From positions 160,001-224,000 of the forward strand of contig CAWAOD010000011.1 of NCBI GenBank assembly GCA_963783575.1: 64,000 nucleotides of DNA. The letters are read 5' to 3'. Of this stretch, positions 19,998 to 23,822 are shown one piece after another (positions within the stretch are counted from its first letter, which is position 1; each line of letters starts with the position of its first letter). Origin of the DNA: an uncultured Spirochaetota bacterium. Lineage in GTDB: Bacteria > Spirochaetota > Brevinematia > Brevinematales > JAOACQ01. Under the pieces are notes generated by a model, which saw nothing but the letters and a program-made list of their open reading frames with translations, was not told where the DNA came from and searched no databases. The position numbers and the translations under genes are program-made.

Positions 19998-20534
19998 CTA
20001 TTGGTCAGCCTGCCGGACTTTTATCAAATTGGAGAGATTAAATCCGTTGCTTACCGCCGAATCCAGGAGAAATTGGTATACAGAATCATCGAGTTGTGGT
20101 GTTCGGCTGAGAATCCATAGATAATCCTTAGTGGCACTGGTGACCATTGCATACTGATAATTTGTGCGATCGAGCTCAAAAACAATATAATCACTGCCAA
20201 ACCATAGAAAAAAGCTTACAAAAAGTTTTGAGGGGAGTTTCTGATCCTGTACCCTCGCGTTTCCGTGCGCACTTGAACGCTTTTCGCTTTTAATACCTTC
20301 ATTCAGAACGTCCACCTGCCCGTTATTCTTTAAAGTATATGTGGCAGTGACATAATTAAGTCCTTCTTCGAAAGATGTGGGCAGCCTTGCGATCTCGTAC
20401 CATTTTCCCATATACTTATTCACATCAAAATTATCTACCGGTTTAATATCCGCAGTACTTTTGTTTTCAGCCGGCAGTGCGGAGAACGCGCAAAAAACCA
20501 TTGAAAACAATAAAACAGATTTTTTTGTGAACAT
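19998..20534 (-). CDS. blc: Bacterial lipocalin
   Basis: YMGKWYEIARLP, ATY, YLWILSRTP; signal peptide; AGGAG 5 nt before ATG 20534. Confidence 0.88.
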   Translation of the reverse strand: MFTKKSVLLFSMVFCAFSALPAENKSTADIKPVDNFDVNKYMGKWYEIARLPTSFEEGLNYVTATYTLKNNGQVDVLNEGIKSEKRSSAHGNARVQDQKLPSKLFVSFFLWFGSDYIVFELDRTNYQYAMVTSATKDYLWILSRTPQLDDSVYQFLLDSAVSNGFNLSNLIKVRQADQ

Positions 20535-20573
20535 ACATTCTCCTATGTAATTTGTCAAGTTTTATTTTAAGAT

Positions 20574-21573
20574 TCAAGCCTCAGATTTCAGATTCAACAA
20601 CTTATAATATACTTCCACAATAATTTTTCTCGCTACTGCAATGATCGCTTTTTGTTTTCCTCTTCTTGTTCGAATATTCTCATAAAACGATTTCATTTCT
20701 TTATCATATCTCACACGAACCCAGGCTGCTTGTACTATGACCCTTAAAAAAGCACCGTCTACTTTTCGTGTAATTTGACCATTTGTTCCTTTTCCGTCAC
20801 TTTCACTAACTCTTGGTGCTAATCCCATATATGATACAAATTTTTTTGAGGTACTAAAGCGGTCTATATTGCCTACCTTCGTTATGATGTATGCGCCGGT
20901 TGTTGTGCCTATTCCCGTTAATTCTTTAATCTCATTATATCCGGGTCTCTTTATGCTTAAGGCTTCTGTTTCTTTATCCAGTACCTTAATGTCTTCTTTG
21001 AGATTTTCTAACATAACATACATCTGGATTACGGCTCTCTTTATACTCTCAGGTATGTTTTGTTCTTTGACCCAGTTTGTGTTCTTTTCAAAATTGTTGA
21101 ACATTTTGTCTCCGGTTTTAATCCCCCAATACTCCATCATCGCTATTATCTTTGTCTTATAGCTTTTCTTATTGCTAACCATTTCTTCCCTCACAGATAA
21201 TAATCCTCTTATTTCAGCGTCTTCGTCGCTTCTTATCTGACAGGTACTTAGCTCTTCTTTTTCAAATCTTTGTAATATAATCGCCATTCTTTCTGCATCT
21301 TCCTTGTCTGTTTTCCATTAATCTTTTTAAATCAATAGTATTGAAAATAACCGCATCTTTTGCTTTATCTTTTAACCGTTTGATTAAATCCCATGTCCAG
21401 TTTGTCGATTCAATCCCGATTATCGTTTCTTTGTCAATCTCTTTCTCAAATTCCGCTAATTCTTTTTCATTTCTCTCATATTGCTTGATTGATTTTTTAC
21501 CGTTTTCTATAATAATGCAAACGGTAATTTGCTTTTTGTGGATATCAATTCCGATCCACTTTTTTGCGTCCAT
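20574..21573 (-). CDS. IS110-family DEDD recombinase/transposase (frameshift at ~21315)
   Basis: WIGIDIHK, IGIES, KTDKEDA (in the shifted frame), GIGTTTG, GLAPRVSESDG (catalytic Ser region), KAIIAVARK. Confidence 0.9.
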
Positions 21574-21601
21574 CGTTTTCCTCCCTAATTTATTTGGGAG
21601 G

Positions 21602-21795
21602 CCTGAATCTTTTAGTGGTATATTAATCCGGTTGAAAAATTACCATACTCCAATACGAGGTTTATCCTCAAAATGGTGGTTCGGACAAGGATTCGATCAT
21701 ACTCCTAACGGGGTTTATCCCCACAAATTGATTCGATCTTTGTCCTATTCAGAGTCCTCATCTATTTTGATGCGGGCTCTTTTATTTTTCAACCT
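21602..21795 (-). ncRNA. Predicted IS110 bridge-RNA-like ncRNA in the upstream non-coding end
   Basis: 5' hairpin (21752-21779) and two tandem, mutually similar hairpin/internal-loop modules (21683-21745, 21642-21680), enclosed by CTGAAT/ATTCAG; folded by eye only. Confidence 0.65.
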
Positions 21796-21814
21796 TTTTT
21801 ATCATACCACCTCC

Positions 21815-21976
21815 TTATGCTTTTTCAGGGAACCACGGGAAAAATAGCGGTTTACTTTTTTTGTATTCCTCGAAATCTGCCCTTCCGGCGTATTTCTTTT
21901 CCAGAAGCGGTACACCGGATACAAACAACAGGAGAAATGTTATGGTTAAAGGGCTTATAATTGATATCCATCCATA
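21815..21976 (-). pseudogene. C-terminal remnant of a DUF1295 (steroid 5-alpha-reductase-like) membrane protein
   Basis: [23 protein letters not shown]...FEEYKK...FFPWFP is the typical DUF1295 C-terminus; the N-terminal part is absent. Confidence 0.7.
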
Positions 21977-22151
21977 TCGGGAAGAAGCACATAAAATAAG
22001 TATAGACATATTCTTAAGATTCGTCAACAGAAAAAATTATTCCGGAAATAACTTTTCGCCATGAATGAGTAATAAAAGGCCGTCAAATTTCATTTTGACT
22101 TTTCCTATGATCAGGATTATAATTTTCATGGATATAAAGGAGGGCATTTAT

Positions 22152-23822
22152 ATGCCGAAAGTTCTGATTGTTGGCGGCGTTGCGGGAGGTATGTCCGCGG
22201 CCGCAAGGCTTAGAAGGCTGGATGAAGAAGCGGAGATAATTGTATTCGAGAAAGGCGAATATATTTCTTACGCAAATTGCGGACTGCCCTATTACATCGG
22301 CGGTGTGATCAGGGATAGGGAAAAACTTCTGGTACAGACTATCAATTCATTCAAAAAAAGATTCCGGGTGGATATCAGGATCCTAAGTGAAGTGAAGAAA
22401 ATTGGCAGGGTTAATAAAACGCTTTCGGTTAAAAACCTTATTACCGGTGAGGAATATTCTGAAATCTATGATAAATTGATTCTATCCCCGGGCGCTGAGC
22501 CTTTTATACCCAGGCTTCCCGGGATTGACAATCCGAAGATTTTTACGCTGCGGAGCATTGCAGATACCGATAAAATAAAAGCATTTATAGATACTCAGAA
22601 ACCCAAAAGGGCATTAATAATCGGTGCGGGATTCATCGGTCTGGAAATGGCCGAAAATCTGTTCAACAGGGGAATTTTCGTAACAATTGTCGAAATGGCG
22701 GAACAGGTTATGAATGCGATAGATTTTGAAATGGCTTCAATCGTACATCAGCATTTAAGAGCAAAAAAGATAGAGTTTTACCTTAGTGATGCCGTTAAAA
22801 GCTTCGAGGATTTGGGATCTAAGATTAAAACAATTTTGACCGGCGGAAAAGAAATCGTTTCGGAAATGGTGATTTTATCAATAGGAGTCAAACCGGACAT
22901 AAAGCTTGCAAAAGAAGCCGGAATCAAGATTGGAGATAAAAACGGAATAGCTGTGAACGATTATTTGCAGACATCGGACGAGAATATTTACGCAGTCGGC
23001 GATGCCGTTGAGACAATAAACCTGGTAACCGGGAAACCGGGAATATTTCCTCTTGCCGGTCCTGCGAACAAACAGGGAAGAATTGCTGCGGACAATATCA
23101 TCAAAGGGAATAAACACAAATATAGGGGCACAATGGGAACGGCAATTGCCAAAGTTTTCGATCTCGCAGTAGGAGTTACCGGAGCGGCGGAGAAAATGCT
23201 GAAATCAGAGAATATTCCTTATCAGGCACTCATAATTCACCCTTCGTCGCATGCTTCTTATTATCCCGGAAACCTTCAGTTCAGCCTTAAGCTTGTATTC
23301 TCACCCGAAGATGGAAGGCTTTTCGGCGCCCAGGCCGTCGGTTTTGAGGGGGTTGACAAAAGAATAGACGTGATCTCCACGGCTATAATGAATCACAATA
23401 CTATTTATGATCTTGAGGAAATAGAACATTCATATGCTCCGCCTTATTCCTCGGCAAAAGACCCAGTTAATATGGCCGGGTTTGCGGCTGAAAATGCCCT
23501 GACCGGTAAAGTTAAAATCATATATTGGAACCAGATTGACGGTCTTAATCGGAGTGAATATTTTATTCTCGATGTACGAACGCCTGAAGAATACAGGATG
23601 GGAACAATAAAGGACGCGGTGAATATCCCGGTCGAATCGCTTCGAGAAAGGATTAAAGAGTTACCTAAAGATAAAAATATCGCAGTTTTCTGCAGGGTCG
23701 GCCAGCGCGGTTATATTGCGGCCAGAATACTTACCCAGAAAGGGTTTGAAGATGTCTATAATCTTACCGGAGGATATTTAACCTATTCGATGGCTCATCA
23801 GAAACAGGATAACCCTGTCTAG
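22152..23822 (+). CDS. CoA-disulfide reductase / NADH oxidase-like flavoprotein with C-terminal rhodanese domain
   Basis: GGVAGG, SYANCGLPY (redox Cys), GAGFIG, YAPPYS, DVRTPEE, CRVGQRG. Confidence 0.9.
   Translation: MPKVLIVGGVAGGMSAAARLRRLDEEAEIIVFEKGEYISYANCGLPYYIGGVIRDREKLLVQTINSFKKRFRVDIRILSEVKKIGRVNKTLSVKNLITGEEYSEIYDKLILSPGAEPFIPRLPGIDNPKIFTLRSIADTDKIKAFIDTQKPKRALIIGAGFIGLEMAENLFNRGIFVTIVEMAEQVMNAIDFEMASIVHQHLRAKKIEFYLSDAVKSFEDLGSKIKTILTGGKEIVSEMVILSIGVKPDIKLAKEAGIKIGDKNGIAVNDYLQTSDENIYAVGDAVETINLVTGKPGIFPLAGPANKQGRIAADNIIKGNKHKYRGTMGTAIAKVFDLAVGVTGAAEKMLKSENIPYQALIIHPSSHASYYPGNLQFSLKLVFSPEDGRLFGAQAVGFEGVDKRIDVISTAIMNHNTIYDLEEIEHSYAPPYSSAKDPVNMAGFAAENALTGKVKIIYWNQIDGLNRSEYFILDVRTPEEYRMGTIKDAVNIPVESLRERIKELPKDKNIAVFCRVGQRGYIAARILTQKGFEDVYNLTGGYLTYSMAHQKQDNPV

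Follow-up and report, generated by a model that had tools for sequence, protein, structure and literature searches.

An IS110-family element with a predicted bridge RNA carrying GGAG guides occupies Shine-Dalgarno sequences in an uncultured Brevinematales genome

A stretch of 64,000 nt from the genome of an uncultured Spirochaetota bacterium of the order Brevinematales (GenBank assembly GCA_963783575.1, contig CAWAOD010000011.1, positions 160,001 to 224,000; hereafter the window) carries an IS110-family element directly in front of a lipocalin gene. In the labels used below for genomes (G), contigs (C) and loci (L), the window is G000:C11:160001-224000, and assembly G000 comprises 18 contigs and 4.9 Mb. 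We consider it highly probable, at roughly 85%, that this is a bridge-RNA-guided element whose GGAG-bearing guides direct its recombination, in the orientation of the downstream gene, to Shine-Dalgarno sequences reading (A)AGGAG. An earlier inspection of the letters without database searches (the sequence-only reading) had suggested from this one insertion that the element might be programmed to hit ribosome-binding motifs. This suggestion is now supported by all six copies within the genome, by 17 of 17 left and 16 of 16 right junctions across the family, and by the occurrence of the motif in both loops of the predicted RNA.

Direct reading of the sequence places CTCCT on the plus strand at 20540-20544 and again at 21811-21815, with the element between them. 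The sequence-only reading had drawn the same borders and had named the same family, and both are borne out by the sequence and by profile searches. The window transposase matches the Pfam domains DEDD_Tnp_IS110 and Transposase_20 (E-values of 4.9e-16 and 3e-19) and reaches 190.5 bits against a cut-off of 140 with the NCBIfam model NF033542, "IS110 family RNA-guided transposase", while its similarity to the structurally solved IS621 and ISCro4 proteins is only remote (E ~2e-7). The element proper together with one core (one GGAG counted) measures 1271 bp in the window copy and 1282 bp in intact copies. Its ends form no terminal inverted repeats; the left end starts with RTGGTATGAT and the right end closes with CATAGGAG. 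In the window copy, the frameshift caused by an 11-nt deletion splits the transposase into 103 and 237 aa. Owing to this deletion, the copy is defective and non-autonomous.

The genome harbors six copies of the element in total, being 98.8-99.9% identical to each other. An intact 336-aa transposase is present in two of them (on C16 and C9), two others contain a stop codon, and the remaining two (the window copy and the one on C12) carry the 11-nt deletion. As the C12 copy shares this deletion with the window copy, the defective form was probably mobilized in trans. The sequence-only reading had pointed to the flanks of further copies as the place to look, and the flanks collected from the genome and its relatives repeat the arrangement of AGGAG followed by a start codon in six out of six of the genome's own copies. 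In each of these AGGAG closes the left flank, and an ATG read in the direction of the transposase comes 5, 6, 6, 5, 5, and 7 nt, respectively, after the right-end CATAGGAG. The open reading frames (ORFs) behind those start codons span 178, 209, 474, 151, 361, and 228 aa, with Pfam domains assigned in three of the six (lipocalin, hexapeptide transferase, and nitroreductase). In the window, the element's own end supplies CAT-AGGAG, so that the lipocalin gene keeps a ribosome-binding site 5 nt ahead of its ATG, precisely as had been read from the letters. The 3′ end of the 16S ribosomal RNA of this genome reads CCUCCUU. AGGAG lies within 20 nt upstream of 614 out of 2969 long ORFs (21%), and the target is therefore an abundant one. 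Altogether, 6551 AGGAG sites were counted in this genome of 37% G+C, and 919 of them (14%) have an ATG 4-9 nt further on that starts a frame of 100 codons or more. The chance that six out of six randomly drawn AGGAG sites have this property is ~8e-6.

Extension of the analysis toward related genomes by DNA and protein searches revealed similar elements in three of the 11 other genomes of the family, with non-coding regions being ~70% and transposases 46-50% identical. Transposase matches at E 1e-40 or better occur in four of 401 genomes of the phylum, G000 included, and all four belong to the family of the window. A pattern scan of the genome contigs returned 21 loci, of which four were real and came from the same three related genomes; the other 17 were devoid of the left-end motif. 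Eight further loci of the clade were retrieved by a metagenome scan, while three distant metagenome loci were set aside and are not contained in any count. Taken together, ten element types were distinguished: the one of G000, one with a transposase at 87% identity, and others for which this identity, where measured, amounts to 45-51%. GGAG closes the left junction at 17 out of 17 sites (16 times as AGGAG, once as TTGGAG), and an additional 18th left junction from the loose end of a public contig ends in AGGAG as well. Every right end reads (A/T)CATAGGAG, and every left end begins with RTGGTATGAT, once with an extra G. An ATG follows 3-11 nt past GGAG at 16 of 16 right junctions, a set made up of 14 junctions from the collected loci, one from a truncated copy, and one from the loose end of a contig of the public runs. 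Complete ORFs behind them measure 149-255 aa, and for those running off the end of a contig the minimum lengths range from 6 to 500 aa. Transposase and downstream gene point the same way at all 15 right junctions read from the sequence.

The 5-bp direct repeat flanking the element could in principle be an ordinary target-site duplication left by an unspecific insertion, with the position in front of a gene being due to chance or to an assembly artefact. We give this explanation next to no credence. A plain duplication is at odds with the recurrence of the same repeat at six of six own and 17 of 17 family-wide sites, as well as with locus L050, whose ends (TTGGAG on the left, ATAGGAG on the right) share GGAG alone. 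Chance is opposed by the estimate given above, and an artefact by the location of the copies in long contigs with unique flanks and by the single-nucleotide polymorphisms distinguishing them.

Uninterrupted counterparts of the occupied sites were found in relatives. In the genome G006 of the same genus, the site orthologous to that on C14 (74% identity at the protein level) shows the same upstream gene end and terminator hairpin, followed by an uninterrupted AGGAG, 6 nt, and ATG. Likewise, the G003 orthologue of the second site on C11 contains an uninterrupted AGGAG-containing motif before its ATG. For the window insertion itself, the sequence-only reading had written out the presumed empty allele and suggested searching for such a DUF1295-lipocalin junction in related genomes or reads. 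The lipocalin gene of G006 indeed has AGGAG, 5 nt, and ATG; upstream, however, a full-length DUF1295 gene is separated from it by a spacer of about 70 bp, and the exact allele was not recovered. Similarly, the notion that the DUF1295 stop codon lies at the insertion site holds insofar as this stop overlaps the left-junction AGGAG, while the frame represents merely a 3′ remnant instead of the whole gene. It comprises the last 70 codons only (profile positions 182-234 of 235). The remnant adjoins a divergent CoA-disulfide-reductase-like gene (22065-23822).

The non-coding region upstream of the transposase gene is predicted to encode a structured RNA. For the intact C16 copy (L005), the fold of this 237-nt region scores z = -7.1 in comparison with shuffled sequences. 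The consensus structure of the ten element types consists of 51 pairs, 13 of them with compensatory changes. A total of 93.5% of the cells are paired, compared with 35-51% in slid controls, and none of 500 shuffles reached the observed values. The structure contains a 5′ hairpin, two internal-loop modules, and a hairpin pairing the ribosome-binding motif of the transposase gene itself. Within the long-range helix CUUGAA/UUCAAG, both strands have lost one base in G000 in a compensating manner. A scan of positions 20400-22000 against Rfam with E-values up to 1 returned no family.

Both internal loops carry the target motif on their 3′ strands. In loop 1 this strand reads xxAGGAG (UUAGGAG in G000; UCAAGGAG, UUAAGGAG, or AUAGGAG elsewhere; UUGGAG in two types) and thereby equals the left half of the target. 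In loop 2, AUAGGAG is found in eight of the ten types with a 7/7 match to the right end, and AUUGGAG, with one mismatch, in G000 and its closest relative. By analogy with IS621, these segments, being identical to the top strand (left half plus core), would pair with the bottom strand and could thus fill the role of the left target and left donor guides. The sole TTGGAG target belongs to an element with UUGGAG in loop 1, and the UCAAGGAG guide is found at a CTCAAGGAG site. When guides were shuffled among elements, 24.1 of 51 positions within the 3 nt before GGAG matched on average, against 31 observed, a value reached in 295 of 20000 shuffles (~0.015). On the opposite strands, the only candidate for a right guide is CCAU in loop 2, which is complementary to ATGG, the first four bases of the left end. 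Two further candidates were rejected, namely ACCACC in loop 2 as right donor guide (a perfect complement to the left end in G000 only, at positions co-varying as a stem in the relatives) and the pairing of AAUUUGU in loop 1 with ACAAATT of the right end, which is not conserved in the relatives.

Several observations weigh against a guided insertion of this kind. The order of the guides is reversed with respect to IS621, and the IS621 mechanism is therefore transferred by analogy only. The search for right guides (right target guide, RTG; right donor guide, RDG) yielded no complement of the core, and the 5′ strands are U-rich. Loop 2 of G000 mismatches its own right end at one base, and the two loci L053 and L054, belonging to one element with a UUGGAG guide, have AAGGAG targets. 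The covariation between guides and targets is modest and derived from ten element types. In addition, no circle junction, transcript, or same-strain empty allele was seen, and the short contig pieces of four public runs contained neither a joint of abutted ends nor a contig joined across the element. Finally, there is the spacer of about 70 bp by which the G006 orthologue exceeds the window site; the left flank of the window copy may have been reshaped.

Based on the analogy with IS621, the following course of transposition can be envisaged. The element would leave its site as a circle, in which the abutted ends would form a promoter (TTGACA, 17 nt, TATGAT) driving the bridge RNA and the transposase. 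Loop 2 would bind the circle junction, i.e., CATAGGAG followed by RTGG, and loop 1 a target with the left half xxAGGAG. A conservative exchange inside GGAG would then leave one GGAG at each end. As a consequence, the host motif would end up before a mini-ORF of 5-14 codons, while the right end would provide the downstream gene with a fresh CATAGGAG at the original spacing. As no terminator-like site lies inside the element (none was found in 20300-22100), host read-through could carry the element's genes and the downstream gene.

The sequence features assigned to these steps recur across the family. A TTGACA-like hexamer is located 17 nt (once 18) from TATGAT across the abutted ends in eight of nine element types, and joining the right to the left end is thus predicted to create a sigma-70-type promoter. 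In the integrated state, the host AGGAG precedes the ATG inside TATGAT by 5 nt (once 6), and this ATG opens a mini-ORF of 5-14 codons without conserved sequence. TATGAT, where the -10 consensus would be TATAAT, is invariant in the left end and is found a second time directly past the loop-1 GGAG (GGAGUAUGAU) in all relatives (window 21801-21806 and 21690-21701). Apart from 4 missing nucleotides, the 3′ strand of loop 1 consequently looks like the left junction that an inserted copy forms. The doubled TATGAT may reflect a contact of the handshake type, or else the ATG of the mini-ORF may be required. Two hybrid promoter-like sites were noticed at the junctions of the window copy, both on the minus strand. 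On the left, CTGAAA of the flank is followed after 16 nt by TATGAT of the element (21801-21828); on the right, TTGACA of the element is followed after 17 nt by TATGTT of the flank, which overlaps the lipocalin ATG (20530-20558). The latter combination of a right-end -35 and a flank -10 (20558-20530) was discarded as lipocalin promoter, as the start would fall inside the lipocalin gene. The coordinates of all features are compiled in Table 1.

Table 1. Features of the IS110-family element and its immediate neighbors (window coordinates).
Feature	Position	Strand	Remark
Lipocalin (Blc-like) gene	19998..20534	-	ATG at 20532-20534, 5 nt past right-end AGGAG; Lipocalin_2 E 2.3e-39
IS110-family element including both shared AGGAG cores	20540..21815	-	Ends set by aligning the 6 genome copies
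Right-end AGGAG, now Shine-Dalgarno motif of the lipocalin gene	20540..20544	-	Preceding CAT supplied by the element
TTGACA, right end, predicted -35 half of junction promoter	20553..20558	-	17 nt from TATGAT once ends are abutted
Transposase, C-terminal fragment, 237 aa	20574..21287	-	ORF list and Pfam
Transposase, N-terminal fragment, 103 aa, ended by frameshift	21262..21573	-	11-nt deletion between 21314 and 21315
Non-coding region encoding the predicted bridge RNA	21574..21810	-	5′ hairpin, two internal-loop modules, hairpin over the transposase's own Shine-Dalgarno motif (21580-21601)
Loop 2, 3′ strand UAUUGGAG, candidate left donor guide	21648..21655	-	One mismatch to the element's right end CATAGGAG
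Loop 1, 3′ strand region	21702..21708	-	Positions preceding GGAG co-vary modestly with targets
TATGAT, left end, predicted -10 half of a promoter formed only with abutted ends	21801..21806	-	Invariant in 10/10 element types; contains the mini-ORF ATG
Left-junction AGGAG, host Shine-Dalgarno motif, overlapping the DUF1295 remnant stop	21811..21815	-	Mini-ORF of 7 codons from the element's left end now starts 5 nt past it
DUF1295 3′ remnant, 70 aa	21815..22027	-	Stop codon overlaps left-junction AGGAG

The restriction of the insertions to working ribosome-binding sites raises the question of how much beyond the motif is recognized. Sorting the AGGAG sites of G000 by a crude six-frame ORF mask assigned 1158 as Shine-Dalgarno-like, 4581 to long ORFs, and 812 to neither class. 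The Shine-Dalgarno-like share thus amounts to 18% of all and 59% of the non-coding sites, and rises to 44-55% and 70-76%, respectively, if AT-rich flanks are required. With a fraction of 0.75, six out of six such sites are expected at 0.75^6 = 0.18, and therefore no extra recognition is needed for G000 alone. A mild excess remains over all 16 junctions, to be read with the proviso that the classes are crude and the fraction is borrowed from one genome.

This excess would fit an active recognition of the entire translation-initiation region, in which the motif together with the spacer or start codon would be read by a right target guide such as the 5′ strand of loop 1, whose AUCAU or U-rich stretches might pair with an A-rich spacer and ATG. 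The presence of an ATG within 3-11 nt at every right junction and of CAU in the loop 1 5′ strand of eight of the ten element types points in the same direction. Nonetheless, we regard such a recognition as unlikely. The distance between GGAG and ATG varies (the values listed above for G000; 3-11 nt overall), a variation which a fixed base pairing cannot follow, and a recognition of the ATG was rejected for this reason. Furthermore, AUCAU pairs with AUGAU as a conserved loop 1 stem, and of the four nucleotides that open the right flank, only zero to three match in the predicted pairings with the 5′ strand. The restriction is most likely the joint result of the motif, an AT-rich context, and the loss of gene-breaking insertions, and the right half of the target seems to be barely specified beyond its A/T-richness. 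Programming for AGGAG is what the data show; they can be explained without assuming that working sites are told apart from the remaining AGGAG sites.

A different view of the copies would be that they are domesticated leaders, no longer mobile and kept by the host for regulation of the downstream genes. Each copy supplies the Shine-Dalgarno motif of its downstream gene, the motif of the transposase itself is masked in a conserved hairpin, and the transposase is broken in four of the six copies. We nevertheless judge this view to be very improbable. The downstream genes are unrelated (lipocalin, hexapeptide transferase, nitroreductase-like, lipoprotein, and others), the orthologous sites of relatives lack the element, and the near-identity of the copies, two of them intact, together with a deletion variant at two loci, fits recent mobility.

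Reduced forms of the guided element were observed in other genomes. In G011 (L013/L033; L013 ~1500-1660), a remnant of the related element, ~130 nt in length, has kept the left end, the 5′ hairpin, and one half of loop 1. Its last letters are the AAGGAG of the loop-1 guide, which now acts as the ribosome-binding motif of a lipoprotein gene whose ATG follows after a spacer of 6 nt. Such a junction would arise if the DNA encoding the guide, which has the same sequence as a target, had served as a pseudo-target and recombined with the right end, and the remnant thereby supports the role assigned to the loop-1 strand. An internally deleted derivative of 623 bp (L056) retains the non-coding region and both ends at one site, and in L055 from the same metagenome, a transposase match with this internal deletion recurs together with this right end at a second site. 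The deleted derivative at two sites suggests that miniature, non-autonomous forms are mobilized.

Further observations concern individual copies and the RNA fold. A 2.5-kb element of the IS21 type, with IstA/IstB-like ORFs of 520 and 249 aa, interrupts the C12 copy (C12:18644-22461; L018/L019) at a point corresponding to window 20761; G000 contains about a dozen near-identical copies of this IS21-type element. A 9-nt inverted repeat is conserved in all relatives, with TTTCAAGCC upstream of the transposase motif hairpin and GGCTTGAAA at the transposase stop (window 21596-21610 and 20572-20582). It brackets the transposase gene, ~200 nt from the left end, and is the only conserved inverted repeat. 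The upstream TTTCAAGCC can also pair with CUUGAA past the 5′ hairpin, crossing the outer helix GGUUUGAA/UUCAAACC; therefore, the two folds are alternative or pseudoknotted.

The genome contains a second IS110-family element of ~1.43 kb in three copies (C16:220241-221670; near C13 279733; near C5 69226-70655) with an open frame of 361 aa. Its three copies lack flanking AGGAG and ATG, and its ends differ as well. Consequently, the site habit belongs to the first element and not to the genome. The second element nevertheless displays the same reversed guide placement: the sequence of its right end recurs, as AAUAGACGG, behind the inner hairpin.

Going one step further, the clade might represent a distinct bridge-RNA architecture. 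Left guides would be placed on the 3′ strands, right guides would be almost unprogrammed, and the target would have shrunk to a Shine-Dalgarno core of 5-8 nt. The donor junction would mimic a translation start (AGGAG, 5 nt, ATG), homing would be a life-style, and the guide-coding DNA would serve as an internal pseudo-target spawning miniature remnants. We put this forward tentatively and hold it to be rather doubtful as a whole. If true, homing would guarantee insertion into transcribed DNA in sense orientation, the rebuilt motif would keep the downstream gene translated, and integrated copies, having lost the junction promoter, would be expressed by host read-through. For the more general case, the element provides a natural bridge system with a very short and abundant target, and its guide order unlike that of the solved IS621 complex informs on the flexibility of bridge-RNA design. 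With regard to genome annotation, such elements split operons while sparing coding sequences and ribosome-binding sites, and their small remnants can pass for leaders.

A comparison with the IS110-type elements IS621, ISCro4, and ISEc21, for which bridge RNAs or seekRNAs have been described, is possible as far as the accessible portions of the respective reports go (PMC11208160, PMC11208158, PMC11187229). Common to them and the present element are a transposase with DEDD and Tnp domains, a non-coding region upstream of its gene, an RNA with a 5′ hairpin and two internal-loop modules, one loop matching the target and the other the own ends, and a short core in donor and target without inverted terminal repeats. 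With IS621 and ISEc21 it further shares a promoter arising only from abutted ends, which is predicted here from the sequence. The differences lie in the guides. In IS621 and ISEc21, the bottom-strand-pairing segments (left target guide, LTG; left donor guide, LDG) are placed 5′ of the inner stem-loop according to these sources, whereas the top-strand-identical segments of the present element are located 3′ of it, and its loops do not follow the IS621 order of stem, left guide, stem-loop, and right guide. The core lies within GGAG instead of CT, the specified target comprises about 5-8 instead of 11 nt, and, unlike in IS621 as described there, right guides holding the core complement were not found. 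Many bridge-RNA models deviate from the IS621 structure, as stated in the accessible part of a 2026 preprint. The IS1111-type elements ISEc11 and ISKpn4 show the same guide order as the present one, with the top-strand complement before the bottom-strand match, and the 336-aa transposase falls within the range of 330-350 aa given for this type in the corresponding part of PMC11187229. Unlike in the IS1111 type as outlined there, the non-coding region of the present element is located upstream and its only conserved inverted repeat flanks the transposase gene.

In terms of target habit, the closest counterparts are IS900 and IS901 of Mycobacterium avium, and targeting of ribosome-binding sites is hence not new within the IS110 family. 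The present host belongs to a different phylum from that of IS900, and the comparison is drawn by target habit, not by transposase tree. The IS900 motif is written in the transposase sense, with the insertion taking place between motif and ATG. Here, by contrast, the exchange is placed inside the motif, which the element rebuilds. A full-text literature search retrieved no paper linking a bridge-RNA guide to a ribosome-binding motif or describing the clade, although supplements of bridge-RNA papers may list such targets. For IS900, the target motif CATGNNNNNNTCTCCTT is given in the accessible part of PMC8141618. As the motif is written there, its Shine-Dalgarno sequence lies on the strand opposite to the transposase, whereas the transposase of the present element is co-directional with the gene. 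Following the same source, IS900 has a long ORF on the complementary strand (hed) borrowing host signals; no ORF of this kind spans the present element, the longest antisense frames here being 97 and 168 aa. Like IS900 and IS901 as portrayed there, the present element homes to the ribosome-binding site and start-codon region in one orientation and rarely breaks genes, its targets consisting of a Shine-Dalgarno motif followed by a start codon. That certain members of the IS110 family are found at translation starts has long been noted, and the present element ties this to the bridge-RNA mechanism described in 2024, with a guide that spells the ribosome-binding motif.

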